Below are positions 22,312 through 47,866 of a stretch of DNA of 64,000 nucleotides, piece after piece. The notes beneath the pieces were generated by a model. It was not told the DNA's origin. It did no database searches and worked only from the letters and a program-made list of their open reading frames with translations. The stretch's first letter is position 1. Every line of letters starts with the position of its first letter. Origin of the DNA: Trypanosoma brucei (lineage: Eukaryota); assembly GCA_000002445.1 (NCBI GenBank), contig CH464491.1, positions 1,536,001-1,600,000 of the forward strand, read 5' to 3'. A program made the translations under genes and the position numbers.

Positions 22312-22621
22312 GTTTTGTTTAGTTCCTGAGAACGCGTAATCACATATCCTCTTTCACACACTGGGCTGTATATTCTTCAACTTTCAACTCGTATCGCCGT
22401 TTTTTACTATTTTTTTTTTTTACTTTATGGGGAAAAGAGTGTGATAACGTACTGTGTGTTTCTCATTATGATATTTTTGTTTTTTTTGCTTCTTCTGTCT
22501 TCGTTAATATTTTACGTGGTCAACGACAACTTTCGCCGGTATGGTGGATAATGGTGCTTGAGTAAGGAGCCAGAGAAAGGAAAAAAAAAGGACCCACAGG
22601 AATATATCCGCCCATTTGAGC

Positions 22622-27146: not shown

Positions 27147-28280
27147 ATGAAAGGCGATGATTCTGTTCATGGAGATGCAACGACTGACCTTCAGTCCCCT
27201 CGGGAAGATGTTGTAACTATGGCTAGTGACGGGGATCATATGATCCGTAAAAGCTTAAAGGACAGTAACAGTGATGCCCCAATCTTTGGGGAGTTGTTGG
27301 ATGCTGAGGTTACTGTTAACCCAATGAAACTCCGCGAAGCCTCCCGCGCGGGGATTCCCCCATTGTACCGCAGTGCTGTGTACCGATATCTCTTAGGGGT
27401 CTCATTTGTTGATAAGTCACGTGAGATGACGGTGGAACGCATGCAAGAAAAGGATTTCGAGCAACTTGAGGCAACTTTTGCTCAAATTGTAGCATGCGAT
27501 GAAAAGGGGGGGTCAACGCGGTGTCATGCCTCGCATGCACTCTTTGCAGCTAATTGCGACACCATGATGACACGGAGGGAGAGCAAATTTGTGAATGGGT
27601 ATCGCTGCTCAGATCGCTTCTCTACTTTTGGTTGCACGACGTGGCTCGCAGTTCTCGCCCGACTGAAGTATATGCCTCAGTTTGTTGGAAACCATGAACG
27701 TCGTCAACGTATTGAATCCGCATGGAGGGCTTTGTACGTCTGTCACTCGGAGGCAACGCCAGATGAGGTAAACTACATCTTTGAGCTTGCCATTGCTTTC
27801 GAAGCAGTGTACAGTACTGCACGAGACATATATTTTTCCGTAGAATCAATATACCACTTGTTGACGCATCATAACAATGTGCTTCAAAACAAGCAATGCC
27901 TACAACACCACTGTGGTGTGTTTTTAATGTTGTTTCGTGCTACAAACTTTGAGTTATATCGCCACTTCGTAACTGAAGGCGTTTCAGTACTTGATTGGGT
28001 GCCGGGGATACTTACGACACTGCTTGCTGGACGACTGCATGTGGAGGATTTGCTTCGGTTGTGGGATGTGTACTTCGCGGATGCTCAGAACTGCTTAGGT
28101 TTTCCGCTGCATCCGTATGTATGTCTAGCCATTCTGGCAGAGATGACTGAGGTGCTGATCGAATGCGAGAAGTCGGGCATTATTGAACTTTTGCAAAATA
28201 TGCCGCGCATGAGAATGGGGTGTATCATTCAGAGGGCTATCGCGCTAAAGGAGTCGGTACTTTCACAAGGACTGCTTTAG
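27147..28280 (+). CDS. Conserved hypothetical protein with a degenerate TBC (Rab-GAP)-like N-terminal motif. Track start is TTG 27138.
   Basis: GIPPLYRSAVYRYLLGV resembles the TBC signature GIPxxLRxxVWxxLLG, but the canonical IxxDxxR arginine finger and YxQ glutamine finger are not evident, so it may be non-catalytic. Confidence 0.35.
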   Translation: MKGDDSVHGDATTDLQSPREDVVTMASDGDHMIRKSLKDSNSDAPIFGELLDAEVTVNPMKLREASRAGIPPLYRSAVYRYLLGVSFVDKSREMTVERMQEKDFEQLEATFAQIVACDEKGGSTRCHASHALFAANCDTMMTRRESKFVNGYRCSDRFSTFGCTTWLAVLARLKYMPQFVGNHERRQRIESAWRALYVCHSEATPDEVNYIFELAIAFEAVYSTARDIYFSVESIYHLLTHHNNVLQNKQCLQHHCGVFLMLFRATNFELYRHFVTEGVSVLDWVPGILTTLLAGRLHVEDLLRLWDVYFADAQNCLGFPLHPYVCLAILAEMTEVLIECEKSGIIELLQNMPRMRMGCIIQRAIALKESVLSQGLL

Positions 28281-28748: not shown

Positions 28749-30095
28749 ATGAACGTTTCACTTGGTACGGCACCGTGTAAAGCTTCATGTGGGGTCAAGC
28801 AACCCACCGGTTCGTGTAAGGGGCCACTGATGTCGCCATTTCAGGACGTGAAGAAGCAGGAGAATAACGACGTGAGAAAGGGTGCAGAAGCCTTAACGGG
28901 TTCTTCCTACTCTGGAGCCAGCGCACCTTTCTATCACTTCAGCCCCCCAACAGGTTCATTCTCGGAGAGCCTCAGGAACGATGTTGATAGACCACATTCG
29001 TTCATTGTAGATTTCATCGACCAATGTGTTGCCAACGGTGTTCCCGAATCGTTTATTGTTGATCATGTGCTTTTTATGACGAATGCTATGCGGGATCAAA
29101 TTAACCTTACTGAAACGTTAGGCGTTCAGCGGCGAAGCGCAGGGCAAGGTGTGGTCAGGCAACGCCAAAAGTTGGATGAAGCAGATAAAGCAGCGAGAGC
29201 GGTCTCCATTTCAAGGGTCGAGAAAGGTGTTCAGCGAAACGGTAGTTCGTCTCTTTCTCTGGTTGAACAGTCGACCGCCAGGCCAACACCTATCAAGGAT
29301 AAGAGTCCAGCATCGCATAAAAACAAAAGTTGTACAGGTAAGGGTGTGATCCGAAGAAAGCGAATAGAGAGCACGAGACCCACAAAAACGATATTTACAC
29401 AGACGCCACAGCCAATGTGTGTGAAGGACTCTTTCCGCGGATCGAAAGAAGGTGGAAGGATGGTGTTCCACGGATTCATGCGACCCACGGACGCCAGTAA
29501 TAGAAAGGAAACACTGAAGTATGTTGATAGCTTTGAGTCATCTGCGCAGCGACTACCATCTCGTCAACAATCACAACCACGTGTGGAAACGCAGCAACGT
29601 AAAGTCACAAGAAGCGTATCTGCAAAGAGTAAACCGTCTGCCGTTGATGTTGCTACGGAAATGTCTCCGCGGGAAGAGTACCTAACGTGGTCCGATGGCG
29701 ATTCTCCAGCAGCAAATTCACAGCAGACAGATAGAGTATCACCGATGACCAAAACACAAGAGAATCGTGCCGTATCTTCTACAGGTGTCAAATCTCTCCC
29801 TGTGAATAGTGATCTAAAACCCCAAGACAAGAAGCAGCACAAGAAAGAAGAATCACCAGCTCATACTGCCGAATTGATACTGAGAGAAGGAGGAGGGGTT
29901 GCTACTGCAGCACTTGTGAAGCGGGGTCGAAATCTATTTCGTATTGTTTCTTCTCCTCCCATTTCCATCGAAGTTCCTTTATTTTTTCCAAGCCAACAGC
30001 TGCAGATGTATATTGAGCGATGTGAGAGGAAAATGCGTGAAGCTATGCGGTTCTTAGACTCCACAAACAACGGTAGCTTCAATGTGATGCGATAG
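28749..30095 (+). CDS. Hypothetical protein with a Ser/Thr/Lys/Arg-rich central low-complexity region.
   Basis: Long + strand ORF in the array with an ATG start. No recognisable motif. Confidence 0.4.
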   Translation: MNVSLGTAPCKASCGVKQPTGSCKGPLMSPFQDVKKQENNDVRKGAEALTGSSYSGASAPFYHFSPPTGSFSESLRNDVDRPHSFIVDFIDQCVANGVPESFIVDHVLFMTNAMRDQINLTETLGVQRRSAGQGVVRQRQKLDEADKAARAVSISRVEKGVQRNGSSSLSLVEQSTARPTPIKDKSPASHKNKSCTGKGVIRRKRIESTRPTKTIFTQTPQPMCVKDSFRGSKEGGRMVFHGFMRPTDASNRKETLKYVDSFESSAQRLPSRQQSQPRVETQQRKVTRSVSAKSKPSAVDVATEMSPREEYLTWSDGDSPAANSQQTDRVSPMTKTQENRAVSSTGVKSLPVNSDLKPQDKKQHKKEESPAHTAELILREGGGVATAALVKRGRNLFRIVSSPPISIEVPLFFPSQQLQMYIERCERKMREAMRFLDSTNNGSFNVMR

Positions 30096-30454
30096 CTATT
30101 TAGAATTACGACAACCTGCGCTGGGAAGGGCTCTGTGCCTGCTGAATGATACAGGCGAGGTGGAAAAAACCAACAAAGGAATGGAAACGAAGCACAACGC
30201 TTATTTGTTGACAGGGCGCTGACTGAAAGAAGGAGACATACACCTAAGCCTCAACATAGTTTTATTCAGTCCACGCACGTTCGTTGGTGTTGCCCAAATT
30301 TTTATTGATGTGTGCTTTCCTACCGGTTTCTTCTAACATCCTTTGCGGTCCACTAACCGTGTCATTGTTTTCATATTATTATTATTTTTTCGTTGCACTT
30401 CCATTTTTCACGAAATATGTGTTGTTTGTAGATAGGTAGGTAACTTTGTGTCAC

Positions 30455-32179
30455 ATGACTGAGGTCTTCCGTGTGCAGTTGGTGTCTCTCTACCGCAGCC
30501 CCGAGGTGGTGGGTTGTACGGCCGAACCGGTACTGCACACGGAACTGGTTATTCAAGGCCAGGGGACCACACACGAGGGGCACCAGGAAAATGAACGAGG
30601 TATAATAATGGGTTCTGTGGGACTTCTTGCGAAACACCATTACGTAGCGATAGATGTGGTGAGTCATTTTGAGGAGGGCCAACCCTTGAGGATAGAAGAT
30701 AGTCTCAAATCAATTAGAGCTAGGCCGCCGCCGTATATTCATGTGGAAGGTGGTGGACGTTTGTTTTTGTTACACCCCATAGAACACAATAGGTATTTAC
30801 TCTCTGTTACGGTTCCCAAAACCGTGTGGCGATGGTTTGGCCCCACCGCATTACATGTTTTATTGTCAACAGCTGTTAGGGGTTACGAAATTGGAACAGA
30901 CGTGGCGGCAGTTGCCTCTGTGCCGACGTATTACCCATTGCACAATCGCATAAGTGAGAATGCTACAGCGGTGCAGGACGCGCTAAGGACTCGGATGCAA
31001 CAAGTGGTGGAATTTACGGCACATCTGACGGAGTGTATAAGTCAAGGGACGGTTTCCTCACCCACCATCTCGCAGGTGTCCGCACAGGTTGTTGCTTCTG
31101 TTAATAAAATGTGCAGCTGTAGCCCGTCTGCTTTGCGTCATAGTAACCAGTTTCGAGTGATGATGCAGAAATTAGTTTGGTCGGCCACAAATTTTTCCGA
31201 GTACACATCAATGAACGGGGCCATAGCCAGTGGTGGACTTTGCGATGGCTACAAACGTTTGGTAGTCACGGCATCTGCTGTGTGGCACCGTGGTGAGCCC
31301 GTATTCAGTTGCGGTTCCTGTGAGGACTTTCAGATGTACCTTCTACCAGCTGCTCTGACGACGTATATGTGCAGGTGCCTCGGTGAAGGTGCGCAACAAA
31401 CCATCACTATAAAGTGCTTTGCGATGCACGCGAGGACGGGAGCTGATTGCCTTCGCGTTCCAGGTTATTTAAAACCAATGAGCCAACCACATCATGTTGG
31501 AGCGACAGTGTGTCTCTCTTTTGCCTCCGCTGGAGGGTGGTGTATCGCCCTTCAAATGGAAGTGGCATTGAATGACTTTACCGGCGCCCCCATGTCTCAT
31601 ATAGTATCCGGTGTGATAAAGCTTATCTCTACGACTCTTGAGGTTCCCCAGTTCACGAAGCTGATGGCCAATAAAAGCGCGGAAACCCTTCACTGTGCAC
31701 CGTCTGCTTCCCTCTTCACCGCTGCGGCTTCTGGTGTTATGGAATCTGTGCGGCAGATCGGTATTTACCAACATTACTGCAGTAACGGCGCGTACGCTAT
31801 CAACATATTACAGAATACTTGTATTTATCACTATTGCAAGGGCGACACTTCTCACCCAGGAGAGACGGCAGAGTGTAGGAATCCGTGGCCGGAAAGTTTG
31901 GATGCAGCTGCGCTTGAGCTGGTGCAGCTCACCTCCTTTTCTCTTCGTTATGGTAGTGGCCGCGCCTCGAGGAATGGCAGTGCTCTCTGCGCTGCGCCGC
32001 GCAGCTCATCACCGTTCACCATTCTTCGCACAAATGGGGCTGTGGTGGCGATGCTGGTTGTTCCATTGTTATTTCCCGATGCTGCTGTTGCTTTGCTGGT
32101 GCTAGAGTTGGCTCCTAGCGGTTCTACAGCGCCGGCAATCCGCGCCTTCGCATCGTGGCTGGCCGCAAAAGTTATGTAG
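30455..32179 (+). CDS. Conserved hypothetical protein. Track start is TTG 30446.
   Basis: 574-aa ORF on the sense strand. The N-terminal ~120 aa have an alternating beta/alpha pattern that could be a longin or roadblock-like fold (inference only). Confidence 0.4.
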   Translation: MTEVFRVQLVSLYRSPEVVGCTAEPVLHTELVIQGQGTTHEGHQENERGIIMGSVGLLAKHHYVAIDVVSHFEEGQPLRIEDSLKSIRARPPPYIHVEGGGRLFLLHPIEHNRYLLSVTVPKTVWRWFGPTALHVLLSTAVRGYEIGTDVAAVASVPTYYPLHNRISENATAVQDALRTRMQQVVEFTAHLTECISQGTVSSPTISQVSAQVVASVNKMCSCSPSALRHSNQFRVMMQKLVWSATNFSEYTSMNGAIASGGLCDGYKRLVVTASAVWHRGEPVFSCGSCEDFQMYLLPAALTTYMCRCLGEGAQQTITIKCFAMHARTGADCLRVPGYLKPMSQPHHVGATVCLSFASAGGWCIALQMEVALNDFTGAPMSHIVSGVIKLISTTLEVPQFTKLMANKSAETLHCAPSASLFTAAASGVMESVRQIGIYQHYCSNGAYAINILQNTCIYHYCKGDTSHPGETAECRNPWPESLDAAALELVQLTSFSLRYGSGRASRNGSALCAAPRSSSPFTILRTNGAVVAMLVVPLLFPDAAVALLVLELAPSGSTAPAIRAFASWLAAKVM

Positions 32180-32973: not shown

Positions 32974-35847
32974 ATGCAGCGCTCACCTCAATCATATGAG
33001 AGCTTTCTTGACGACGAGGAACTTGTTAAGCAGCTGATTGAGGCTACCGACGTGGATGAAGTTGTAGAGCGCATGGAAATAGAGCGTTACCATCACATTG
33101 CGCCCTTGCTACGGGAAATGGGACCGTATAATTGTGACTCAAAGAAACAACCAGGCTCTACGTTATCGAACTCTCAGCAACAGCAGTGGAATAGAGACGA
33201 ACCTTTTCACAATAATCCAGATGCGCGAACGAATGAAATGAAAAGAACACGCGATAGAGGTTTGCGTTACACCATGAATACCGCTTCCACCCCACCCCCG
33301 CCCCCACCAGAAACACTCTCCCCCATAGAGGATCCCCTTGAAAGGCCACGTGAGGAGATGAAGCCAACTAGAAGACGTTACACATCACCCGCACCCACGA
33401 AATCGCCATTACTCTCCAGCGAGAGAAAAAGGCAACCACCAACGTATGATGATCAGGACGAAAAACCTATCACCCATAGAATTCGTCGAAGACAAGCATA
33501 TAGTGCGGAAAGGCTGAGACCACCAAAGAGCAACACAAGTCGAGGGAGGCCACTCTCGCCGGCTAACCCCAGAGGCTACGCTGGACAGCAGAGGGCTCGC
33601 TCTTATGATCGGAAACCACCACCCCCATCGTCACGGCGGATTTCCCCACAGGATGAGTGTCCGAACGGGTTGGGGAAGTCACCTTCTAGTTATTCCTACT
33701 TTCGCCCGGCAGCCACCGCAAAGCCAGCATGGAGGGGTGTAAAGAATGCCCAACGTTACATGGATCTGTTTGCACCTCCTGCTGCTAACCCATCCGAAAA
33801 TCGTAGTCCATTGCGTCGGATTAAAGGTGGGTACATTGCGCCCCTTCCACCTCCTGACGGTCAATCAAGAAGAACACTATCGGCGAGGAAGCGTCCTCTT
33901 TCTCCGCCCGTTCCAGGCCGACGCCTAACACCACCAGTGGATCGTTACTTTCCTTTGAGCAGTGGTATTAGCCGGTGGGGCCGTATGGACAACGGCTATG
34001 ATTCAGAACTAACTGACGCATCAGAGGATGTACATCCCTCAGATGATGCACTTCAAGGCTACGCTGGTTACGATAATTATGTTGTTATTCCCCCACGTGT
34101 CGTAGAGAGGGAGCGGTGCGTGAGAAACCGTGTGCCAACTATGTCTCCGGCACGCTCCAGTATTCTTGTGAGCCCATGTAGATGTTTTTCTTCCCCCTGT
34201 GAGAGGAGTGGATCCTCCGATGCACAGAGGATGTGGAGATCACCACAAAGGACCCAACGAGGAACAAGATCACCCCAGGTAAGATTATCACCAGCCGTGG
34301 ATGATTCAAGAGAAAGTGAAAAGAACAAGAGCACGCGAGTGAAGAACGAAGACCTTAGTCGGAAAAATACTTGCGACGCAGGAATATCATTTCCTTCGCC
34401 GCGACAAAGGTTTAAGCCGCCCGACATGGTAACAAAGAAGGGAAATCACCGCGAAACCCAAACCTCTCCGCCACAACCCAGCCACAAGGAGGTCAAGAAT
34501 GCCGCCCTTTCACCACGCACGCTTCCAGACGAGAAGACGCCCCGCCCGGACGGCACGACAGAGCAACCGAGTACCAAATCTCCATCCCTCCCCGCTTCCA
34601 CGCGGGGGTCAAACATATCAGTTTCCTCGTCAGAAGGTGGGGGGAAGGATGAAGTTCCCATTGTGGATATTAGCAAAGAGAACAAGTCGTGTGACAACAG
34701 TCATTCACCTGACAGCGTTACTCATACATACAAAAATGTAGGAAATAAGATCTTGGATCGTAAAACTGCTGTAAGTCCGCGAGTCCACGATAAAGATAAG
34801 CGTGAGAGAAAGGGCAAGCGACAAAAGCGTATAAAACGGCGAAAAAACAATGCCCCTGACTCATCCACTGACCAGAGCAGTACGTCAGACTCAAGTTCAT
34901 CAAGTAACTTTTCCAGCGGTACACCATTTGATGAGTCACGGACAACGGAAAGAAAGCGTCGTCATCGCCGTACTCATCAGAAGTCGGGTGGCGATTCGCA
35001 CCGTCAGCAAAAGGGGAAATCAGCTCTAAGTTCCGACAACTCTCCTCTAAGAGATGATACGGCACACGCACAGGTGCCGAAAGTGTACCCCCCACTTACC
35101 AGCAGTCCTCAGAGAATTAGGAAACCTATTTGCCTACAACAGGATCCAGTTGTGCGACCGCAAGTGCAGTCAGCAAGCCGACCGCCTTTTGCGCAGACGG
35201 TACAGAGGCCTGTGTGCACTCCCGAACCGTTTATCTCATTTTCATCTCCTCCAAAGAGCAAGACGGATGTAAATGGCATTCAGCGCAGTGACAACGCAGG
35301 TCAAGGCGTTCCTTCTGTTAGCATACGAGTTGTGCCACCACCATCTCCAGGCCCACGTCGCGAACCGCCGAGCCCCACTGCCCCGAAAATGGGAGGAGTG
35401 AAGATTCCTTACATGTCGTATCTCCACACTTCGTCACCAACATCTGTAAGAGCTTCACAGTTGGGACCGGCGCAGCCGCAGCAGACCCAGTCAGCAGCAT
35501 CTGCAGCGACCCCCAGAAACGGAACTGGTGAACCCGTGTGGCGGAGCAGTGGTCATGATAGCGTTGGACGGAGTAATACGAGGGAACCTCATTTAAGGAG
35601 GAAGTGGGCTATTTGTGGGCATACACAGATACGTTCCCCACCGAGGGGTGGACGTTGTTCGTCGCAGCCTCCCCATCTACAGGCGCATGAATGGACGGCT
35701 AACGGACAACGAATGACAACAACTCGTCAAATTACTGAGCCGCCCCTCCCGATCACACCACGGCGGTCGGGCGCCACCACTCCTCAAAGACCAAACGGAT
35801 CATGCGTAAAGATAATCTCCAGCCCCTCGAGGGTAGCGCAGCACTGA
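32974..35847 (+). CDS. Large low-complexity protein rich in Pro/Ser/Arg/Thr, probably intrinsically disordered.
   Basis: 957-aa ORF. ATG at 32974 is preceded by a pyrimidine-rich tract. Composition is dominated by P, S, R, T and Q with a short structured N-terminus (MQRSPQSYESFLDDEELVKQLIEATDVDEVVERMEIERY). No stop codons over 2.9 kb, which supports coding. Confidence 0.55.
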   Translation: MQRSPQSYESFLDDEELVKQLIEATDVDEVVERMEIERYHHIAPLLREMGPYNCDSKKQPGSTLSNSQQQQWNRDEPFHNNPDARTNEMKRTRDRGLRYTMNTASTPPPPPPETLSPIEDPLERPREEMKPTRRRYTSPAPTKSPLLSSERKRQPPTYDDQDEKPITHRIRRRQAYSAERLRPPKSNTSRGRPLSPANPRGYAGQQRARSYDRKPPPPSSRRISPQDECPNGLGKSPSSYSYFRPAATAKPAWRGVKNAQRYMDLFAPPAANPSENRSPLRRIKGGYIAPLPPPDGQSRRTLSARKRPLSPPVPGRRLTPPVDRYFPLSSGISRWGRMDNGYDSELTDASEDVHPSDDALQGYAGYDNYVVIPPRVVERERCVRNRVPTMSPARSSILVSPCRCFSSPCERSGSSDAQRMWRSPQRTQRGTRSPQVRLSPAVDDSRESEKNKSTRVKNEDLSRKNTCDAGISFPSPRQRFKPPDMVTKKGNHRETQTSPPQPSHKEVKNAALSPRTLPDEKTPRPDGTTEQPSTKSPSLPASTRGSNISVSSSEGGGKDEVPIVDISKENKSCDNSHSPDSVTHTYKNVGNKILDRKTAVSPRVHDKDKRERKGKRQKRIKRRKNNAPDSSTDQSSTSDSSSSSNFSSGTPFDESRTTERKRRHRRTHQKSGGDSHRQQKGKSALSSDNSPLRDDTAHAQVPKVYPPLTSSPQRIRKPICLQQDPVVRPQVQSASRPPFAQTVQRPVCTPEPFISFSSPPKSKTDVNGIQRSDNAGQGVPSVSIRVVPPPSPGPRREPPSPTAPKMGGVKIPYMSYLHTSSPTSVRASQLGPAQPQQTQSAASAATPRNGTGEPVWRSSGHDSVGRSNTREPHLRRKWAICGHTQIRSPPRGGRCSSQPPHLQAHEWTANGQRMTTTRQITEPPLPITPRRSGATTPQRPNGSCVKIISSPSRVAQH

Positions 35848-36757
35848 TGGTTGTAGACGAGCGAGTGTGCGCGTGGAGGCAAGGCTTTACACTAAGGGGT
35901 GCTTGCGGTTTTACTATATGGAACTTTCATGCACATTTGCAATATTTTAAGAAAGGCTGCCAAACAGTTTGGTGGTTCTCTTAGTGTTTTGAGATATATA
36001 TTTTACCCCTTAGGTGTGTTAAAACTACTACATAGAGCAACAGTGTGCGAGGTGACGAAACATAAAGTTCTTTTACTTGTTTTTTTTAATTACGAATGCT
36101 TCTTTTTTTTTTTTTTGAGGGGAAGTGTGAACTACTGCGATGCTGTTCTTTATTAGATGCTGAGCGAAACGAAAGGGTACTGGATATAAGCGAAAAGAAA
36201 ATAATGGGCAGTAGAATAGGGAAAGAGATTGTTGGAAGGGAGCGGGAGACAAGTGGAATGGGGTTTGGTAGAGGGAGTGGTAGATGCATCTGCTTCAGTT
36301 AGAAGCGTTTATGTTGTTTTCCTATATTTTTTATGACCGTTTAAAGCATGCGGACATATATATATATATATAAACCCTTTTCTGTCTTTTCTTTTCCGTT
36401 GTTATTAAGCGTGGGAGCACACAAGGAAACGTGGAACAACACTAAATTTAACCAATTTACGCGTTCTGGGCTGCATTACCTTACCGTCACCTTCACTTCT
36501 TTTCTATTTGTCTATGACGCATTTCTCTTGTTTGTGTGTCTTTCTTTTTCCTTCTACTTGGTCTGCTTTCATGGGGGTTGCCGTAAACCTACTGGAACCC
36601 CCTGACAACGGAAATGTTGTATTGAGGTGCTGGATCGTGCAGTGAAGGGGGGTTGGCTATTGGGTGCTAGAGTTCCCCGCACATAAGTACAATATAATTT
36701 TGTGTGCGCGCAGTTACGCACTTTTTTCGTTTGTACAGCTAAGAGAGACCGTTGACG

Positions 36758-38521
36758 ATGATGACCAGCAGTCCGAGTTCCATTGAAGTGCCCCACTCGT
36801 GGGCGGAGAAGTACAAACCAAAAACCATTGCACAGATGTGTTACCCCGTTACCGCAAATAAGTTGAAGCAATGGATGGAAGAATTTGAAGCCAATAGTTC
36901 CAAAATGAGGGGAGCACTACTCTCGGGACCACCTGGTGTTGGTAAGACGACATCTGTTTATGTTGTGGCTTCCGAGCTCGGGCGTGTTGTTGTTGAATAC
37001 AACGCCAGCGACTTCCGCAGCAGAAAATCACTGCGGGAGAACGTTAGCACCGTAGTTAATAACCGCACTTTCAGCAACACTTCCTCGTCCTACGCTAATA
37101 TTGTGCTGCTGATGGACGAAGTGGATGGGTGCGACATTGGCGGCGTCGGAGAAGTTATTCAAATGATCAAGAATACCAACGTGCCAATCATCTGCACGTG
37201 CAACGACCGGTGGCATCCAAAATTGCGCTCACTGCTGAACCACGTGGAAGACATCCGCGCTGGTCGACCCCCGTGTAACATAGTTGCCAACTACCTTTGT
37301 GATAAGGTACTGGCTCGCGAAGGCATCTCTCTTTCTAAACAGCTTCTGCAGGACATCATACAACGATCGGGAAGCGACATCCGCAGCATGCTCAACAATC
37401 TGCAAATGTGGTGCATCAACCAAACATCACTTCAGCAGAAGAAACTTGCGGAGTGCGCACTGCAGTCAGCAAAAGATGGTGATGTTGGCCTATTTGAAGC
37501 CGCCGAGGTATTTCTTCTGCAGGGGTCGTCGCGTGGTAGGCCCCGTTCCATTGAAGAGCTCCAGTCCACGTTCTACAACTCGGACCTTGTGGACATGTTC
37601 GTGCAGGAAAACTACCTTCACTTCAAACCTGAGGACCGTGATTGGATGGATGCAGTTGCCGAGGCAGCGTCTTCAATTTCACTCTCGGATCTAGCGCAAC
37701 GTATTATGTTCTTTGAGAACAACTGGTCCGTATCCCGGTCCCACGTACTTCTCTCCAGTATTATACCGTGTGCCCTAACTCGTGGTCATTACGAAACTTT
37801 TGTAACAGGGCAGCAGGCCATATTTGATCGACAACGTCCTGTGAAGTTTCCTTCATGGCTTGGTCAAAATTCAGCTGCTGGTAAAAACAAAAGGCTGCTT
37901 CGGTGCTTGACATTTCAGGCGATGGGTCACTCGAAGGGTATTAGCGGTACACAAGAGGATGTTCTGCTTGATTACATACCACGTGCCTGGGAGAGCAGAC
38001 TTACCGACCCATTAGCACAACGGGGGAAGGATGCCATTCCGGAAGTAATTGCTTTCATGGATCAGTACCACATCATGCGTGATGACTGGGAATTTATCCA
38101 GTCTGTTGCACACTTTAAGAAAATGCAGTCGGCGTCTCCAAACCCTGCTGCAGGAGATATTCCAGGAGGTATAAAAGCAGCCTTCACGCGAGAGTTCAAC
38201 AAGACACATCGTTTGGAAAGCTTTGCGAAGGGGGCGCTGCAACGGGTTGCCACCGATGGAATAGGGTTTGGAGAGGGGGAAGAAGACAACGAGGAAGAAG
38301 GAAGTGTTGCGGGAGCCTCACGCCCCACTGCGAAGAAAGCTTCCGCGAAAACTGCCGCGAAGCCGAAGAAGGCGGCGAAAAAGGAAGGTAACGAGAATGC
38401 AAAACCGAAGAAAGCGGCGGCCAAGACGGCGAAACCTGCGGGTAGGCGGGGGAGGAAAGCCACTCTTGTCGACTCTGATTCGGAACCGGAGTTTGAGAGC
38501 TACAGTTCCGATGACTATTAG
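36758..38521 (+). CDS. Replication factor C large subunit-like AAA+ clamp loader (RFC1/Ctf18 family) lacking an N-terminal BRCT domain, with a basic histone-H1-like (KKA/AKK repeat) C-terminal tail.
   Basis: WAEKYKPKTIAQM (RFC box II-like) and the P-loop LLSGPPGVGKTT. ELNASDFRSRKSL, VLLMDEVDGCDIGG and PIICTCNDRWHPKLRSL align with RFC1 (ELNASDTRSK, LIMDEVDGM, PIICMCNDRNHPKIRSL). The C-terminus is AKKASAKTAAKPKKAAKKEGNENAKPKKAAAKTAKPAGRRGRKA. Confidence 0.75.
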   Translation: MMTSSPSSIEVPHSWAEKYKPKTIAQMCYPVTANKLKQWMEEFEANSSKMRGALLSGPPGVGKTTSVYVVASELGRVVVEYNASDFRSRKSLRENVSTVVNNRTFSNTSSSYANIVLLMDEVDGCDIGGVGEVIQMIKNTNVPIICTCNDRWHPKLRSLLNHVEDIRAGRPPCNIVANYLCDKVLAREGISLSKQLLQDIIQRSGSDIRSMLNNLQMWCINQTSLQQKKLAECALQSAKDGDVGLFEAAEVFLLQGSSRGRPRSIEELQSTFYNSDLVDMFVQENYLHFKPEDRDWMDAVAEAASSISLSDLAQRIMFFENNWSVSRSHVLLSSIIPCALTRGHYETFVTGQQAIFDRQRPVKFPSWLGQNSAAGKNKRLLRCLTFQAMGHSKGISGTQEDVLLDYIPRAWESRLTDPLAQRGKDAIPEVIAFMDQYHIMRDDWEFIQSVAHFKKMQSASPNPAAGDIPGGIKAAFTREFNKTHRLESFAKGALQRVATDGIGFGEGEEDNEEEGSVAGASRPTAKKASAKTAAKPKKAAKKEGNENAKPKKAAAKTAKPAGRRGRKATLVDSDSEPEFESYSSDDY

Positions 38522-39324: not shown

Positions 39325-40551
39325 ATGATGACGCAAAACGTGAAACAGGTGCAAGTAGGAAAGCATTCTTTTCCATTGTATTCTCACCCTGCCATCCGTG
39401 AAACTGCCGGAACCGAGGCGTACGTTGAACGCGTTGTTCAAAAACATCAGAACAGCCCACGAGTACGAAACTCCGTTAATTACGTGGCGCGAAAGCTCCG
39501 ACAAATCGGAGCAATGAAAACCCTGAACCCCGAAGAACATCAGGTTGGTGAAGAAACATCGTGCGCGAAGTCCGCGCGCACCGACAGAAAACACAGTTAC
39601 TCACCCTCTCCATTTGAGGGGAGGATACCAGCGGCATTAAAAAGCGCAAAGAGGAACAGCGAAGTTTGTAAAACGCCCATGGGTAAATTACAAGCTCCCT
39701 GCTCTCCAACCGTATGTGGGTACCCGTTACCGTACCCCAGGTCGTTATCGCACAATCTTTTCAATGTCATTCAAGATACGAGGAGAAAGGGGAAAACAAA
39801 CACCGAACAAAGTGAATTGAAGAACGAGGGTGATCCTCTCACCTTGTCGCCCATTGTTCCAAAGGTTGATACTTCACCTGCTACGGAAAGCAAAGGACGT
39901 AGACGTGAGGAAAAACCTCTGGCACATGAGGGACAACTGCTCAAACATAAACTTGATGTGTGGAGAGATCTGTTTCTTGCCTCTGCTGCGCAGCAATTGG
40001 CTGCAAGCGGCCACCCCCGCTCGCGGCGTGACGATGCAGGAAATGTTTTTTATTCTAACATTTCGTGTTATCTTAAGGAGGGATGTATTGTGAAATCAGA
40101 AGACACGGACCTGCGTACTGGGCCGAGGGATCACCTTAGGGTTCAAGGTGCCTATTTGTCACACTTAGCACCCGAGGCGTTTGCCAATTTGCACGTCACG
40201 CTGGACGGTAATACTTTTGTTCTTCGTAATGTACAACGGACATCGCCTACTATAAAGCAAATATCAGAGGAACTGTGCGAGGAAAGGGGAATTAGATTGT
40301 TGCCAACCGCAATGCAAAAGAAGGTGGCGTACCTGGTTTCACAGGTGAGCACCTCGACGAAAGAGAGGGCGGGCACCATCAGTGGCAAAAAAGGGTTGGC
40401 AACCTCCAAATGGAAGCATACAAATTCTCTACAAACATGTAAACATTCTTTGAACATGGAGCTACCGGAAGTAACGTACCGCAGTCGCGTGCTCTCGACC
40501 ATACGTGAGGGTGCATACGGGTCACCGTTTCAAAAAGGCTGCAAGATGTGA
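39325..40551 (+). CDS. Hypothetical protein.
   Basis: 408-aa sense-strand ORF with an ATG start. Basic and Ser-rich. No motif recognised. Lies immediately upstream of MND1. Confidence 0.4.
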   Translation: MMTQNVKQVQVGKHSFPLYSHPAIRETAGTEAYVERVVQKHQNSPRVRNSVNYVARKLRQIGAMKTLNPEEHQVGEETSCAKSARTDRKHSYSPSPFEGRIPAALKSAKRNSEVCKTPMGKLQAPCSPTVCGYPLPYPRSLSHNLFNVIQDTRRKGKTNTEQSELKNEGDPLTLSPIVPKVDTSPATESKGRRREEKPLAHEGQLLKHKLDVWRDLFLASAAQQLAASGHPRSRRDDAGNVFYSNISCYLKEGCIVKSEDTDLRTGPRDHLRVQGAYLSHLAPEAFANLHVTLDGNTFVLRNVQRTSPTIKQISEELCEERGIRLLPTAMQKKVAYLVSQVSTSTKERAGTISGKKGLATSKWKHTNSLQTCKHSLNMELPEVTYRSRVLSTIREGAYGSPFQKGCKM

Positions 40552-40822
40552 ATATCGCTTTATTTTGTTGTTGCGGCGTAATCTAATTGCCCTTTGTGTA
40601 CACAACTGGAAGAAAATGGAACAGTGTATCGCCAAACTTACTCTTTCCTCATTATTTTATTTACATCTATTTCTGCCCAAGTGTGCGGGTACTTCATTTT
40701 CCATCAGAGGGTTGATGCCCCACCAACTGATTTTCCCCTTTATGATTCTGCTTTGATAACTGTACAAGGAGGAGGACGAAATTCAGACACGAAACAAGTG
40801 GTCTCAGCTTCATCGGTTGCTA

Positions 40823-41938
40823 ATGAACAAATCCGCAAAAAAGAAGGGTCTCTCCATGGAAGAAAAGGTGTCGCGTATTGAAACTTGGTTTGTTAACAAT
40901 CCGTCGCCTTACACGTTGAAAGATTTAATTCAAATTCTACCCAAGGCGACGGGCGTGATCCCACAGTCCGTGGAAGAGTGCATGGAAATCCTTGTCTCGG
41001 AAAATCGTGTGCGGCAGAAGAAAGTGGGTGTTCATGTTCTTTTTTGGCGTTTTCCCCAAACTGCTACCCAACGGTTGGCCGGCTCTATGGGAGAGAAAAC
41101 AACAACCACAGAATTAGCCAAATACCTTAGTATGTCAGAAGATGAGCTTCGGACGGAACTTCAAACTTTGAAGAAGACAGAGAAAGATATTCGTCAGCGG
41201 ATAAAAGAGACTCAGGCATCCATTGGGGATGACAACGCTGTTCAAAAGGATGCAGAGCAAATACGAAGTCTTCAGGGTGAAGTCAAGATACTGGAAGAGC
41301 AACTCAATCAACTTGCCCTGTTGGATCCAGCATTCGTTGAAAAACTGAAGGCCGCAACAGTGGTAGCGTGGGAATCTGCCAACCGCTGGACAGACAACAT
41401 GTACTTACTTGAGCAGCATATCTCACGGAAGATGGGGATGAGTGCACGGGAGCTGCGTGCTCAGCTGCAGCTTCCTCTAGAGGTGGAATACATTGAGTAT
41501 GATGAGCTTCTGCCGTCAGCAACGAGTGGGGGTAAATCAGCATGTACATCTTCAGGAAATTCTTGTGCGTCACCTCTAATCTGCACCGTCGATGCCACTC
41601 ACGGGGGAGGCAACAGTCAAGAAGTACCGGCAGCATTCCACATTGAGGAAGGCCACACCCAAAATATCAATGAGGAAGCGGGGGAAGCATTAACTGAAGG
41701 TGGATGTGATGTGAAACCTCATGAAGACGTTGAGAATGAAACCTCTAACACCTTAAGGAAGGAGAGGGATGGAAAGAAGCGTGGCAGGGGGAGACCTCCA
41801 CTGGAGAATGCTAAGAAAGATGACAATATGGTTAATGCTCCCTCAGTTAAAAAGAAAAAGAATGAAAAGGACAGACCACCTGCTGCGAGTAATACTGATG
41901 CACTCACGCCGGCCAGACAACGGCGTTGCCGAAGGTAA
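40823..41938 (+). CDS. MND1: Meiotic nuclear division protein 1 (MND1) homologue with a ~170-aa C-terminal extension that contains an RGRP (AT-hook-like) basic motif. Track start is TTG 40817.
   Basis: The N-terminus MNKSAKKKGLSMEEKVSRIETWF...YTLKDLIQILPKATGVIPQSVEECMEILVSENRVRQKKVGVHVLFWRFP matches the Mnd1 winged-helix consensus (KKKGLS-EEK...F-...LKELEK-PK--GI---SVKEVLQ-LVDD--V---KIG----YWSFPS). Coiled coils follow, then ANRWTDNMYLLEQHISRKMGM (Mnd1: ANRWTDNIF-----------). The C-terminal extension includes KKRGRGRPPLENAKKD...KKKKNEKDRPP. Confidence 0.85.
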   Translation: MNKSAKKKGLSMEEKVSRIETWFVNNPSPYTLKDLIQILPKATGVIPQSVEECMEILVSENRVRQKKVGVHVLFWRFPQTATQRLAGSMGEKTTTTELAKYLSMSEDELRTELQTLKKTEKDIRQRIKETQASIGDDNAVQKDAEQIRSLQGEVKILEEQLNQLALLDPAFVEKLKAATVVAWESANRWTDNMYLLEQHISRKMGMSARELRAQLQLPLEVEYIEYDELLPSATSGGKSACTSSGNSCASPLICTVDATHGGGNSQEVPAAFHIEEGHTQNINEEAGEALTEGGCDVKPHEDVENETSNTLRKERDGKKRGRGRPPLENAKKDDNMVNAPSVKKKKNEKDRPPAASNTDALTPARQRRCRR

Positions 41939-43137: not shown

Positions 43138-43770
43138 ATGTCAGGAACAACTTCCATTCGAGAGGCGATAGCGCGGTTTGAAGATGCGGAATACAAACGT
43201 CGCACGATGGAGATGACAGAAGAGGCAAAAGCTGAAGCCCCGCGTGTTGTCGCCTCGGAGGAGGCTCGTGTTTTGCTAATTGGAATGCTACCTCCTATTG
43301 TGAAGATGGACAAGGACATTACGACGCTGGTGAATTGCGAACACCTTGCGCTCTCCACAAATGCCATTGAGAAGATAGGACCTGGGTTGAAAGAGCTCAA
43401 GAAACTAAAGGTTCTGTCACTCGGTCGAAATGCCATCCGAAAGATTGAGCAACTAGACATCCCGCATCTGGAACAACTGTGGCTCTCTTATAACAAAATC
43501 GACAAACTCACTGGACTGGATAAACTAAAGAGCCTTAAGGTGTTATATATGAGTAACAACCTTATCAGCAGTTGGACGGAGATTGACAGGTTGGCTAATC
43601 AATGCCCTGAACTCATTGAAGTACTTTTTAAAAACAACCCCATTCACAATAACGCCCCATCAGAAAAAGAGTACCGCTGTATGATATTGCAGAGGCTTCC
43701 ACGGTTGACGAAGCTCGATGGTGTACCAGTGGATCCGGAAGAGAAGGAAGAGGCGGAGCGCGGCCGGTAA
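43138..43770 (+). CDS. Axonemal outer-arm dynein light chain LC1 (DNAL1), a leucine-rich repeat protein.
   Basis: Collinear with Chlamydomonas and human LC1/DNAL1: IREAIARFED..., MLPPIVKMDKDITTLVNCEHLALSTNAIEKI..LKVLSLGRNAIRKIEQLD...LEQLWLSYNKIDKLTGLDKLKSLKVLYMSNNLISSWTEIDRLA...RLPRLTKLDGVPVD. Confidence 0.9.
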   Translation: MSGTTSIREAIARFEDAEYKRRTMEMTEEAKAEAPRVVASEEARVLLIGMLPPIVKMDKDITTLVNCEHLALSTNAIEKIGPGLKELKKLKVLSLGRNAIRKIEQLDIPHLEQLWLSYNKIDKLTGLDKLKSLKVLYMSNNLISSWTEIDRLANQCPELIEVLFKNNPIHNNAPSEKEYRCMILQRLPRLTKLDGVPVDPEEKEEAERGR

Positions 43771-44659
43771 GAGTGCATGAACGAACACATTCATACATTT
43801 ACATTAAGTTTGCATAGATGTGACTAACACACTGGTGGTGAGAAAGGGAACACAACTGAGTGCTCACATCAGGTAACAAATCTGCCGCTGCGACTCAGTG
43901 CGGTATTTTGGAAGCAGTGTGAAGACGAGACGGTAAAAAGGTGCTGAACTTCAAGTCAGTAAGTCGGCAGCTATCGGTGTGTGTATGTGCTACTCGAAAT
44001 CACTCCACGGGGTTCGTTTTTCTTTTTTTCAGATTCGGTGTTTTAGATGTACGCCTCCAAATGTGTTAAGGAGACAAAGAAATTAAAGAAAAGAGAAGGT
44101 AATGGTGAGAAGGAGGATGTAAGAGAGCCCAGAGAAAATAAAAGAATCTCTCACATATCCTCTGTTTTCTCCTCTTCTTTGTATGTGTTTTGTGTGTTTT
44201 GGTTCCTTCTGCCTTGTATGTGAGTGAAAAAATAACGTGTGGTGATGAATGGTGCAAGGGAAGGAGGAGTTGTGACCTGCTAAGGAACTGTAACTGAATT
44301 ACTTTTACCTATGTGGTGACGTGCGTAAGTAGTAGAAGCAAAGAAAGAGGAAAAGTTGGCATGTTACTGCAGTGGAGGTTTATCTCCTGTTTATGTAAAT
44401 TTGACTCCTACCACTAGGGATATCACTTCCTGACATAGTGGCAAGCTATGAAATGTTATCATTAGATGAATGAATACTTACCACTACTGTTATCATCCCC
44501 TTCACGCTGAATGGATCGTGAGGGAGTGAGATATTCAACACCTTGTGCTCAAAAGAATGCAAAATTTTTTTTTATCAGTTCAATTTAAGAACTTTTTTCC
44601 ACCACGTTTGTTTCCCCTATTGACTGTAGCTGTTTTTCAAGAAAGTGAGTGCGCACCAA

Positions 44660-47600
44660 ATGGATGGCGATGAATTATTCGTTTTAACACCCAGTGACGA
44701 TGGGGACTTAAGCCAAGCAGGAGACGAAGGGAAGGGTGGCCCCGAAGGCAATGAAAACAGAGAGGGCTCATCAACGGCAGCATCCGCTTCCATCACCGAA
44801 TTGGAGTTTCTGTTTTTACGTAAACCTTTAAATGCTCCGCTGGTCAAAGGGTCTATAACCTACGGTAAATTAAACGAAGGTAACGCGCAGAACCAACAAA
44901 GTCCACAAGTTCAGGTTGATGTGAAGAAGGAGGAATCATCGTCGTCAAACGGTGGCGTTTCACTAGGTGTGGGTAGCGATGTACAACGCGTAACAATTGA
45001 GAGTAAAACAGCAAGTACCCTTTTGTCCACGAATGTACAGGCAGAGGCGGCAGTTAATATCAGAATGCTACGTGCGATGACGTCTGCTGATGTACGTAGC
45101 GTTCTGAAACCCTTTTTCCACAAAAACCAAACCTCGATGGAATATTTCGAGAAAGTAACCACTCAGTTGAAGGAAAAAGTGATTGCTGGTAAGATTTTAG
45201 ACGAAAAGGAAAAGGACATGTTAGAACGTTGGCGACTGTTGGTGAATATATCAAACTGGGGTGACGGAAGTCGGAAAGCAGATGATGTCCTCTTTCCACC
45301 CGAACTTGTTCAACCAGCTGAAGCACTTTTGGAACCGGGGTGGAGTAGTAATAAAACGGCAGCAGACGAAACAACAGCTTGTCCACCGCCAACAAACGGT
45401 TGCAAGATATATTTGCGCGCCCATCAACTGAAGGGAATTCGTTTCATGTGGAGTATTCTGGCGGAGGGACCCGTTGGTCAGGTTCCTGCTGTTGGTTGCA
45501 TTCTTGCACACACAATGGGACTTGGGAAGACTTGTCAGGTAATCATTTTCCTTCACCTTTTCCTGGATATGTTGCGGAAAATGGGTGGAAGTTGGTACAA
45601 ATCAAAAAAAAAGCAGAGGAGGATATTAATCGTTGTACCAAAGTCGACACGGGCCGTGTGGATTGAAGAGTTTAACATGTGGTCAAAATTCTTTCCTCGC
45701 GATAAACGTATTGTTCCGTTGTCAGTGGAAGACTGCACAAGAGTAGGACAACGTGTGAGGGCGTTTAATGAATGGAAGACGAATGGTGGTGTTTTACTGG
45801 CGGGATATGAAATGCTGCTAAATGTCGCCAAGTGCATTGGAACCACTAGTCAGGAGGTATGGAACCCTTCAAGCTATGTTGATCTTCTTGTATGTGACGA
45901 AGCTCATCGTCTCAAATCTGAAAATTTACAAATTGCCAACGTGTTACGAAGCTTCAATCCACTTCGCCGGCTCCTGATCACAGGAACACCGCTGCAGAAT
46001 CACCTAAAGGAGTACTGGGCTATGGTGGACATGGCCGTTTGGAAATACTTTAACAAGCAGCGCTTCTCACAGTTCTTTGTCAGTCCAATAGAAGCCGCTG
46101 CAGACCAAAAGGCGAGCTTGGATGAGGTGACAGTTGCACGAATGAAGACTTTTGCACTTTCACGAGAGCTAAGGAATTTTGTTCAATGCGCTGATGGAAC
46201 AGCACTGAGGAAGGAACTGCCACCTTTGCACGAGTATGTTGTCGTTCTTCCGCTTTCTCAGAGTCAAGCAAAACTGTACAACGAATTTCTGCAGTTAGCA
46301 AGGCATAGTGGTGCAAGACATCGTGCCTTCCTGGAGATAGCAATAGCTATTAATAAAATTTGCGCGCATCCACAACTTCTCTATGCAACCGGATTTGCCA
46401 CAGGCGAAGAAGGACAAAGCGAAGCCTTGGGGCTACTGTCGGATGGTGAAGGGGATGATAATTTTATGACTGAATGCCCCGAGGCTGGGCAGGAAAATGT
46501 GGCCCTTCGAAGCAAACGGCGGGGGTTGTGCCAACCCCCTCCAGGGTATGTTCCCATGCCTGAAGAGGGAACCAAACTGTACGTTTCTATTTTAATAATT
46601 AAAGCGGCCGTGTTGCGGGGTGAGCGGTGCCTGTTTTTTAGTATGTCTACTAAATTGTTAGATATCTTTGAGGGCATTATAGCCGAGATGAACGATCGGT
46701 GGTTGAAGGATGGCTCTCTCAGCCGCCCCATTGTTTTCTGCAGATTGGATGGCCGTAAGACAGAGTGGGAACGGTCTGAGGCGCTACGGTCCTTTGCCTC
46801 GTCTACTGGTGCTGACCTTTTCCTTTTGAGTACTAAAGCGGGTGGTATCGGGTTGACCATTACATCCGCAACCCGTGTCATAATAGCGGATGGTAGTTTT
46901 AACCCTGCTGACGACACACAAGCTATTGGACGTGCGTATCGATATGGGCAGACTCAACCGGTTTACGCATACCGCCTTGTTTGCTATCAAACCTTTGAAC
47001 ACCGTATGTTTCAGCAGAAGTTGGCAAAGGAGTGGCTCTTCCGCACGGTTGTGGAAGAAGCCTCGTTGAAACGTGATTCGTTGTCAGGGCTCCGAATACA
47101 ACCCATTTATGAACTTCTAAACAGCAAACAAAATGTGAGAAGTGGGCCCCAACAATTGACCGACGAGCAGCGCCAATCAACAACCTCCATCACCTCTGAG
47201 GATGCCGTACTCGCCGATGTGTCGAAACACATTCTGTACGCTGAGCGACATTCCATGTTTCTACAACGGGATGAAACTACCAACCTCACTGCTGAAGAGC
47301 GATTTTTCCGGGAGGAGTATGAAAAGAACCGCCTGTTTGACACGGATAACATGCCGGATCCGGTGGAGGGAGCTCAATTGCGGGAGGTGTGGAAACAAAA
47401 CTTTCATAAAAGTCAGTTGGAGCCCCAGGCCAAAACGCTGGGTGCTTTGCTAGATAACATAATTAAGTCACGTGCCGAAGCAGACCCACAACTGGCTGAC
47501 CTCCTGAGTAAGATGGGCATTGTAAGGAAAGGAATTGATAATCTTGTGGTTGATGCAAGTGATGAACCAAACAATTCAGAAGTTACGGAGCGGCCGCAAG

Positions 47601-47866
47601 CAAACCAAAGGAATAGTCGCCGCGACGATGAAAATGAGTCGAAGGGTTACTTGCCTGAACCCAAAGCCCCACGCCTGGAGTCGGTTCCCCGCGTCCGGCG
47701 AGGTTTGGGGGGAAACACTTCCGCACAAAGTGTGCTTTCCCATTCTAATGCTGATAGCAGTTGTGTTGGCCCCTTCGAACCGCTTGTCGATCCAAAATTT
47801 TACGGAGAACTGCGACATGGGGGGAGCCCCTATCGACCCATATACGTTGATGACGATACTGTCTAG
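44660..47866 (+). CDS. SNF2-family DNA-dependent ATPase, ATRX/ARIP4/RAD54-like. Track start is GTG 44645.
   Basis: Motif I is ILAHTMGLGKTCQVI, motif II is LLVCDEAHRLKSEN, motif III is LLITGTPLQNHLKEYWAMVDM. The helicase-C region is CRLDGRKTEWERSEALRSF...LFLLSTKAGGIGLTITSATRVIIADGSFNPADDTQAIGRAYRYGQTQPVYAYRLV. Confidence 0.85.
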   Translation: MDGDELFVLTPSDDGDLSQAGDEGKGGPEGNENREGSSTAASASITELEFLFLRKPLNAPLVKGSITYGKLNEGNAQNQQSPQVQVDVKKEESSSSNGGVSLGVGSDVQRVTIESKTASTLLSTNVQAEAAVNIRMLRAMTSADVRSVLKPFFHKNQTSMEYFEKVTTQLKEKVIAGKILDEKEKDMLERWRLLVNISNWGDGSRKADDVLFPPELVQPAEALLEPGWSSNKTAADETTACPPPTNGCKIYLRAHQLKGIRFMWSILAEGPVGQVPAVGCILAHTMGLGKTCQVIIFLHLFLDMLRKMGGSWYKSKKKQRRILIVVPKSTRAVWIEEFNMWSKFFPRDKRIVPLSVEDCTRVGQRVRAFNEWKTNGGVLLAGYEMLLNVAKCIGTTSQEVWNPSSYVDLLVCDEAHRLKSENLQIANVLRSFNPLRRLLITGTPLQNHLKEYWAMVDMAVWKYFNKQRFSQFFVSPIEAAADQKASLDEVTVARMKTFALSRELRNFVQCADGTALRKELPPLHEYVVVLPLSQSQAKLYNEFLQLARHSGARHRAFLEIAIAINKICAHPQLLYATGFATGEEGQSEALGLLSDGEGDDNFMTECPEAGQENVALRSKRRGLCQPPPGYVPMPEEGTKLYVSILIIKAAVLRGERCLFFSMSTKLLDIFEGIIAEMNDRWLKDGSLSRPIVFCRLDGRKTEWERSEALRSFASSTGADLFLLSTKAGGIGLTITSATRVIIADGSFNPADDTQAIGRAYRYGQTQPVYAYRLVCYQTFEHRMFQQKLAKEWLFRTVVEEASLKRDSLSGLRIQPIYELLNSKQNVRSGPQQLTDEQRQSTTSITSEDAVLADVSKHILYAERHSMFLQRDETTNLTAEERFFREEYEKNRLFDTDNMPDPVEGAQLREVWKQNFHKSQLEPQAKTLGALLDNIIKSRAEADPQLADLLSKMGIVRKGIDNLVVDASDEPNNSEVTERPQANQRNSRRDDENESKGYLPEPKAPRLESVPRVRRGLGGNTSAQSVLSHSNADSSCVGPFEPLVDPKFYGELRHGGSPYRPIYVDDDTV

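Follow-up and report, generated by a model that had tools for sequence, protein, structure and literature searches.

In yeast, the BRCT domain of the large clamp-loader subunit Rfc1 and the top of its AAA+ module form a second, 'shoulder' site for 5' duplex DNA, which favours loading at small gaps (PMC9293004). Yeast replication factor C (RFC) without the BRCT domain still loads PCNA efficiently (PMC9293004; 10.1101/2025.08.08.669392), and DNA binding changes only about two-fold when the domain is removed (10.1101/2025.08.08.669392). Its loss does lead to sensitivity to methyl methanesulfonate (MMS) and to shorter Okazaki fragments in vitro, and RFC no longer stays in complex with PCNA after loading, a function in which FEN1 can also take part (10.1101/2025.08.08.669392). 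Work from 2022-2025 found BRCT loss to be synthetically lethal with the loss of FEN1. Engineered N-terminal truncations of RFC1 (yeast 1SXJ and 8DR4; human deltaN555, 6VVO), with box II about 15-30 residues in, assemble and load PCNA efficiently. Here, we describe the RFC1 gene in a 64,000-nt stretch of Trypanosoma brucei contig CH464491.1 (assembly GCA_000002445.1, positions 1,536,001 to 1,600,000, hereafter the window), the product of which has a near-identical N-terminal boundary; while the former are laboratory constructs, the trypanosome truncation is the wild type of a whole clade.

We read this gene as the canonical RFC1 of the T. brucei group, i.e. the PCNA loader, from which the BRCT domain was lost once in Metakinetoplastina and in which the C-terminal tail is the ancestral RFC1 tail, and give this reading a probability of about 80 %. 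The gene is known and annotated; what deserves to be recorded is that in a whole eukaryotic clade, to which major human pathogens belong, the replicative clamp loader does its work with no BRCT domain in RFC1. No paper mentioning the loss of this domain in the clade was found in the literature searched. According to work from 2022-2025, the domain serves in 5'-end and gap recognition, in MMS resistance and in keeping RFC on PCNA to stabilise Pol delta. With these roles still being defined and a whole clade doing without the domain, kinetoplastids provide a natural experiment on its dispensability or its substitutes, and the difference from the host enzyme may bear on parasite-specific replication biology.

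Identity and N-terminal boundary

The gene is a single open reading frame (ORF) on the + strand, with a first ATG at 36758, a stop codon at 38519-38521 and a product of 587 aa; the ORF list, made with the bacterial code, opens it at a TTG at 36752 and ends it at 38521, and the ATG at 36758 was taken as the start. The product is identical (100 %, full length) to 'replication factor C, subunit 1, putative' (P0001) of Trypanosoma equiperdum and the T. brucei group, from which it follows that the gene is real and already annotated, and it shares 68-73 % identity with RFC1 of other Trypanosoma species. The features of its folded part are:

36758..38521, +, complete RFC1 coding sequence, 587 codons plus TAG/TAA stop
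36800..36820, +, RFC box II WAEKYKP, aa 15-21, the first conserved RFC1 element, aligning with yeast Rfc1 at about residue 298, just past the BRCT domain and linker (alignment)
36926..36949, +, Walker A/P-loop GPPGVGKT, aa 57-64 (Pfam, alignment)
37106..37129, +, Walker B LLMDEVDG, aa 117-124 (alignment)
37184..37234, +, PIICTCNDRWHPKLRSL block, aa 143-159, an RFC1-typical motif that includes the sensor-1 region (alignment)
37307..37438, +, RFC1-type AAA+ lid PF25361, aa 184-227, with SGSDIR and the invariant D207 and R209 (Pfam, alignment)
37676..38203, +, RFC1 C-terminal domain PF08519, aa 307-482 (Pfam; AlphaFold2 model and Foldseek)
37802..37846, +, euglenozoan insertion VTGQQAIFDRQRPVK, aa 349-363, 15 aa with three basic residues, between the equivalents of yeast His-659 and Phe-666 (position inferred from pairwise alignment)

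The protein is RFC1 proper, and this identity is secure. Pfam finds the RFC1-specific C-terminal domain PF08519 over its whole profile (1-158) with E=5.1e-41 and 140.8 bits, where 23 would suffice, the RFC1-type lid PF25361 with 40.2 bits (cut-off 34.9), and the AAA domain PF00004 with E=8.9e-12. Box II, Walker A and B, the PIICTCNDRWHPKLRSL block and SGSDIR are all present, the last four intact. When the sequence was searched against the PDB, human RFC1 (3.5e-75) and yeast Rfc1 (4.7e-62) came first, followed by Ctf18 (1.7e-16), ATAD5/Elg1 (3e-7) and Rad17 (8.6e-4). The latter three are thus weaker than human RFC1 by about 59 or more orders of magnitude; yeast Rfc1 is ahead of Ctf18 by about 45-46 orders, and the RFC1 chains are ahead of ATAD5 and Rad17 by more than 55. 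The fold gives the same order: residues 12-493 are folded in the AlphaFold2 model, for which the best 20 Foldseek matches are all Rfc1/RFC1 chains (1e-25 to 1e-19), with CTF18 (1e-17), ATAD5 (3e-11) and Rad17/Rad24 (3e-10) below them. Every full-length RFC1 chain ranks above Ctf18, and one partial Rfc1 chain model falls after the top Ctf18. The comparison with RFC1, Ctf18, Elg1 and Rad17 that the first-pass annotation of this DNA had called for therefore bears out its assignment to an RFC1-type large subunit and speaks against the Ctf18 or Elg1 identity it had offered as an alternative. Of the motifs it had cited, MDEVDG and PIICTCNDRWHPKLRSL are both in the protein, while 'ELNASD' is the human/animal form and reads EYNASD (VEYNASD) here.

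Compared with S. cerevisiae Rfc1 and human RFC1/p140, the trypanosome protein shares the AAA+ module with Walker A/B, the RFC1-type lid, the collar and PF08519, with around 30-34 % identity over roughly 500 aligned residues, as well as a disordered tail in which an acidic patch is followed by a basic stretch. In contrast to both, it has the 15-aa insertion by the shoulder site and an additional acidic/Ser-rich end, and it lacks the N-terminal region (around 280 aa in yeast and 550 aa in human) that includes the BRCT domain.

The absence of the latter was seen by all approaches used. As had been stated from the sequence alone, the protein starts about 60 aa before the P-loop (56 residues by our count), with box II already at residue 15, and carries no N-terminal BRCT or ligase-homology region: Pfam did not detect PF00533 in the protein, the BRCT columns are empty for it in an alignment with BRCT-containing RFC1s, a hidden Markov model (HMM) built from nine RFC1 BRCT domains had no match in the six frames of the window, and tblastn of BRCT-containing N-termini against the same six frames gave chance-level matches only (best E 0.28). 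Likewise, no BRCT domain was found in any of the 23 other large ORFs of the window. Its absence from the protein is thus real and does not reflect a mis-called gene model. Residue 13 aligns with residue 296 of yeast Rfc1, and residue 14 with residues 28-32 of the truncated chains 1sxj_A and 6vvo_A; the start thus coincides with the truncation boundary engineered in yeast and human RFC1, which makes the protein a natural 'RFC1-deltaN'.

Distribution of the BRCT domain among relatives

All 46 closest homologues (P0001-P0046), which take in Trypanosoma, Leishmania, Leptomonas, Phytomonas, Strigomonas, Angomonas, Novymonas, Bodo saltans and environmental relatives, lack the BRCT domain, and the 41 with a covered N-terminus and a recognisable box II have the latter starting at residue 2-60. 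Every trypanosomatid and bodonid examined is therefore without the domain. Next in similarity come Perkinsela sp., four environmental sequences and one euglenid-like transcriptome entry, the proteins of which keep PF00533 (E=8e-9 to 8e-14). These Perkinsela (Prokinetoplastina) and euglenid-like RFC1s (P0047-P0052) are the closest non-metakinetoplastid homologues, with 35-42 % identity, and share with the trypanosome protein the euglenozoan insertion near the FPSWLG motif and an acidic-then-basic tail; unlike it, they retain the BRCT domain and finish in the basic stretch, without the terminal acidic/Ser block.

Neighbour joining on 481 well-aligned columns places the BRCT-less sequences in a single clade, the sister group of which contains BRCT and includes Perkinsela, and the euglenid-like pair falls outside both. 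With the BRCT-less clade nested beside BRCT-bearing Perkinsela and euglenid-like relatives, the simplest reading is a single loss after the split of Prokinetoplastina, i.e. in the ancestor of bodonids and trypanosomatids (Metakinetoplastina).

A survey of 1.84 billion representatives for BRCT-less RFC1 beyond kinetoplastids returned around 20 short models starting at box II. Ten of these were looked up and were mostly environmental, with at least one obvious truncated model (Homalodisca, with a 914-aa sibling), and truncation is a probable cause for others among the short models. Two clusters (P0212 and P0240) are RFC1-like, consistently 505-519 aa long, start at box II and recur in many metagenome contigs of up to 18 kb; they lie outside the kinetoplastid clade and may be further natural BRCT-less RFC1s or viral homologues.

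The C-terminal tail and its likeness to histone H1

While residues 12-493 are folded, AlphaFold2 gives the last 94 residues no secondary structure and a predicted local distance difference test score of about 29. Their features are:

38237..38518, +, predicted disordered C-terminal tail, aa 494-587, with 19 K+R and 17 D+E (AlphaFold2, composition)
38273..38299, +, acidic patch EGEEDNEEE, aa 506-514, with an equivalent in human, yeast and insect RFC1 (alignment)
38321..38458, +, basic Ala/Lys/Pro block RPTAKKASAKTAAKPKKAAKKEGNENAKPKKAAAKTAKPAGRRGRK, aa 522-567, 46 aa with 18 K+R and 67 % A+K+P, holding the Trypanosoma-conserved KKxxKKE (composition, alignment)
38357..38419, +, imperfect 21-nt direct repeat (38357-38377 and 38399-38419, 86 % identity, 42-nt spacing), encoding AKPKKAA twice (repeat comparison)
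38444..38458, +, RRGRK, aa 563-567, conserved K/R-K/R-x-K/R motif closing the basic block, putative nuclear localisation signal (alignment)
38471..38518, +, terminal acidic/Ser-rich block DSDSEPEFESYSSDDY, aa 572-587, specific to the kinetoplastid clade (alignment, C-terminus charge count)

The A/K/P-rich stretch to which the first-pass annotation had drawn attention (aa 525-568, AKKASAKTAAKPKKAAKKEGNENAKPKKAAAKTAKPAGRRGRKA) exists, and no other of the window's 24 large ORFs matches its composition, the best 46-aa A+K+P fraction being 0.70 in RFC1 and at most 0.43 in the other 23. The protein does not end in it, as had been supposed, since 19 further residues (TLVDSDSEPEFESYSSDDY) form an acidic/Ser-rich end. 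Part of the repeat-like look of the T. brucei tail is due to the imperfect 21-nt repeat, which suggests a small recent internal duplication. It is not the A/K/P texture that is positionally conserved in Trypanosoma tails, where Ala content spans 0.13-0.28 among species, but KKxxKKE and the terminal basic motif. The latter reads RRGRK in T. brucei, KRKRK in T. congolense, KRGRK in T. cruzi, KRKRAR in Leishmania major and KKRK in yeast, with KRP-type forms in bodonid-like relatives, and would be a classical nuclear localisation signal.

A Lys-rich tail preceded by an acidic patch also occurs in the BRCT-containing RFC1s of human, yeast, beetle, pig, rhinoceros and snake, as well as in the BRCT-containing euglenid-like RFC1s and an environmental relative grouping with Perkinsela, and this layout therefore predates the loss of the BRCT domain. 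The A+K+P fraction of the basic segments is 0.46-0.76 in BRCT-containing and 0.51-0.76 in BRCT-less proteins, and the tails of BRCT-less bodonid-like proteins hold about 15-18 K+R versus about 13-20 in BRCT-containing RFC1s. Longer tails are confined to Trypanosoma (basic block of 43-55 aa with 18-24 K+R) and Leishmania; as there is no expansion in the BRCT-less bodonid-like tails, this lengthening came after the loss. In our view, RFC1 has thus kept its ancestral tail here, in a composition typical of the lineage; the tail neither derives from H1 nor arose with the loss of BRCT, and what had appeared H1-like is largely ordinary RFC1 tail sequence.

The likeness to kinetoplastid histone H1, described as a single Lys/Ala/Pro-rich domain (PMC3486875), holds as far as composition goes: the basic block (K 0.30, A 0.28, P 0.09) is Lys/Ala/Pro-rich low-complexity sequence with KK doublets (PKKA and KKAA words), as is H1. 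The close resemblance that had been claimed does not extend further. Homology to H1 was not detectable. When 5.8 billion proteins were searched with the 53-aa tail, there was no match at E<=10; as even self-like matches were missing, presumably owing to composition correction, this search provides no ranking of H1 against other Lys-rich sequences. The likeness is not kept in RFC1 orthologues either, the tails of T. congolense and T. cruzi having no 4-mer in common with two T. brucei H1 peptides. Moreover, kinetoplastid H1 is free-standing and strongly polycationic, whereas the 46-aa block of RFC1 sits between acidic blocks of a 587-aa enzyme and the whole tail is near charge-neutral.

Several points weigh against our reading of the protein as a once-truncated RFC1 with an ancestral tail. 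The BRCT search was confined to the 64-kb window and the best 120 RFC1 homologues, the neighbour-joining tree carries no support values, and no functional experiment on T. brucei RFC1 was found in the literature searched. As to the tail, the basic block of Trypanosoma is around 1.5-2 times longer than that of BRCT-containing RFC1s (25-35 aa with 9-16 K+R), and some gain of DNA affinity is therefore possible. In addition, the comparison with H1 that had been proposed did yield a modest excess for T. brucei itself, with six 4-mers, mostly of the PKKA and KKAA type, in common with the H1 peptides versus 1.4 expected from shuffled tails (P=0.009), a test limited by its H1 sample of two 15-aa T. 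brucei peptides (30 aa in all) printed in PMC3486875.

The last two points are also what favours an H1-like function, in which the expanded Ala/Lys/Pro tail would act like the C-terminal domain of H1 and its non-specific duplex binding would replace the BRCT tether, i.e. 5'-duplex binding and retention of RFC on PCNA. Compared with that of BRCT-containing RFC1s, the block of Trypanosoma and Leishmania is indeed longer and more charged, its composition fits the published description of H1 (PMC3486875), and the post-loading role of the yeast BRCT domain is a contact with double-stranded DNA, which a polycationic tail could mimic in principle. We nevertheless consider this unlikely, given that the basic tail is older than the loss and coexists with BRCT in many lineages, that it is not expanded in BRCT-less bodonid-like proteins, that homology is not detectable and the likeness not conserved in T. 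congolense or T. cruzi, that the acidic flanks leave a net charge of about +2, or less if the Ser cluster is phosphorylated, and that tail and BRCT domain lie at opposite ends of the polypeptide. Furthermore, one loss event allows no statistical correlation. The idea that an H1-like tail had taken the place of the BRCT domain is thus not borne out by the age of the tail layout, the unexpanded bodonid-like tails, the missing homology and the near-neutral charge, while a weak, non-specific electrostatic contact of the basic block with DNA is possible.

A better candidate for a lineage-specific function than the basic block is the terminal acidic/Ser element. The last 15 residues are net-negative in 34 of the 42 complete BRCT-less RFC1s of the kinetoplastid clade, and the other eight have a short hydrophobic/acidic motif after the KR motif (LTFIKD, LSFIDKD, LTFVE, EVVIL), whereas the C-terminal end is net-positive in 139 of 148 BRCT-containing RFC1s. 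The element consists of Ser/Asp/Glu runs with a small hydrophobic core (EF, FIV, IEI or VVIL), SFIVSDSDSD being among the related ends, and we take it to resemble acidic clusters phosphorylated by CK2 or SUMO-interaction motifs, as a putative likeness. It is tempting to speculate that the disordered C-terminus was remodelled in Metakinetoplastina to take over the post-loading role of BRCT, tethering RFC to duplex DNA, chromatin or modified PCNA and so keeping Pol delta processive. As proposed, this would have comprised first the new terminal acidic/Ser plus hydrophobic element, found in the 42 BRCT-less and rare among the 148 BRCT-containing RFC1s, and later a longer basic block in trypanosomatids, possibly with a contribution from the euglenozoan insertion at the shoulder site. 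We hold such a takeover to be quite improbable, and since the BRCT domain was lost in a single event, the co-occurrence of the terminal element with the loss is not evidence of compensation.

Lesser alternatives, predicted working and gene neighbourhood

The missing BRCT domain might also be an artefact, with the true N-terminus upstream or in another exon, or with a separate gene providing the domain in trans. Being divergent, BRCT domains may evade detection, and the search was confined to the window and the best RFC1 homologues. Such an artefact is very unlikely all the same. An in-frame TAA (36740-36742) lies 18 nt, i.e. six codons, 5' of the ATG, and the region upstream of the ATG is:

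35848..36757, +, intergenic region with poly-T and polypyrimidine tracts, without BRCT coding potential (sequence reading, BRCT search)

With their long T and pyrimidine tracts, these 900 nt look like any intergenic region of a trypanosomatid. Box II lies 2-60 residues from the start in each of about 40 independent gene models, which come from different genera, and the HMM and tblastn searches of the window gave no significant match, as described above. Introns are almost never found in trypanosomatid protein-coding genes, which counts against a BRCT domain in another exon. Finally, no trypanosomatid protein bearing both PF00533 and RFC1 domains was among the best 120 RFC1 homologues, which argues against a second, BRCT-bearing RFC1.

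That the gene encodes another large subunit, i.e. Ctf18, Elg1/ATAD5 or Rad17/Rad24, has next to no probability and was rejected: these proteins share with RFC1 the AAA+ core and position A of the pentamer, and the Pfam Rad17 P-loop model does match aa 14-117 with 40.2 bits, but this match spans only the generic P-loop half of that model, PF08519, which they lack, and PF25361 are both present, and sequence and fold searches alike place RFC1 chains first, with far weaker matches to the others.

Taking the protein as a BRCT-less RFC1, its working can be outlined by homology with the enzymes of yeast and human. It would occupy position A of the RFC pentamer and, with RFC2-5, load PCNA at 3' primer-template junctions. 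The modules needed for clamp loading are all kept, i.e. the AAA+ ATPase with Walker A/B and SGSDIR, the lid, the collar and the C-terminal domain, the BRCT/ligase-homology region presumably having been lost once in the ancestor of Metakinetoplastina. Pairwise alignment shows that, of the yeast shoulder-site residues, R477 (R171), F552 (F246), H659 (H344) and the 'separation pin' F666 (F364) are kept, while K314, N459, R476 and H556, some of which differ in human RFC1 too, are not conserved. The 15-aa insertion in this region is common to euglenozoan RFC1s and best conserved in kinetoplastids (FDRQRPVKFP). We infer from these sequence comparisons that the enzyme probably loads clamps at 3' junctions with full competence and has a 5'-duplex site that is reduced or altered. 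BRCT-dependent functions would then be dispensable in this lineage, covered by FEN1-like redundancy or moved to other elements.

The tail would be a disordered polyampholyte of acidic, basic and acidic/Ser blocks, in which the acidic-then-basic part is presumably ancestral; its share of Ala/Lys/Pro rose in this lineage, and the small internal duplication accounts for part of its greater length in T. brucei. Its likeliest roles would be nuclear import through the K/R-K/R-x-K/R motif and weak, non-specific electrostatic contact with DNA; a BRCT-like module for 5'-end recognition it would not be. Isolation of proteins on nascent DNA (iPOND) has yielded T. brucei RFC1 (10.1101/468660). A cross-species lesion pull-down found enrichment of RFC1-5 on abasic and ribonucleotide DNA in both yeasts but does not list them for T. 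brucei, a weak and circumstantial indication for which many trivial causes are possible (PMC10220248). The literature searched held no gene identifier, localisation or phosphorylation data for T. brucei RFC1.

Every ORF of at least 180 aa with a Pfam domain in the window lies on the + strand, as expected for one kinetoplastid polycistronic unit. Apart from RFC1, the Pfam-assigned genes are:

14-2074, +, DUF547
5626-6333, +, axonemal dynein light chain
7092-7844, +, triosephosphate isomerase
10023-10700, +, p24/GOLD
11486-14227, +, family-A DNA polymerase
18081-20402, +, MCM5
22616-24871, +, WD40 protein
27138-28280, +, RabGAP-TBC
40817-41938, +, Mnd1 homologue
43138-43770, +, LRR protein
44645-47866, +, SNF2 ATPase
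54279-55619, +, DnaJ protein
60508-63648, +, DEAH helicase

The replication and recombination genes Pol A, MCM5, RFC1, Mnd1 and SNF2 lie within about 36 kb, a clustering that is probably a coincidence. No Pfam domain was found at E<=0.001 in the + strand ORFs at 2508-4946, 14986-17298, 28749-30095, 30446-32179, 39325-40551 and 48429-53756, the last of which encodes 1775 aa.

The ORF directly 5' of RFC1 (32974-35847, +) encodes a Ser/Pro/Arg-rich low-complexity protein of 957 aa with no Pfam match, the N-terminus of which (FLDDEELVKQLIEATDVDEVV) resembles the start of a 4569-aa protein (P0121). The latter contains an RFC1-like region at aa 2202-2800, which is 57 % identical and has no BRCT domain. 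Most likely, it is a merged gene model from the assembly of a related kinetoplastid, which implies a conserved gene order.

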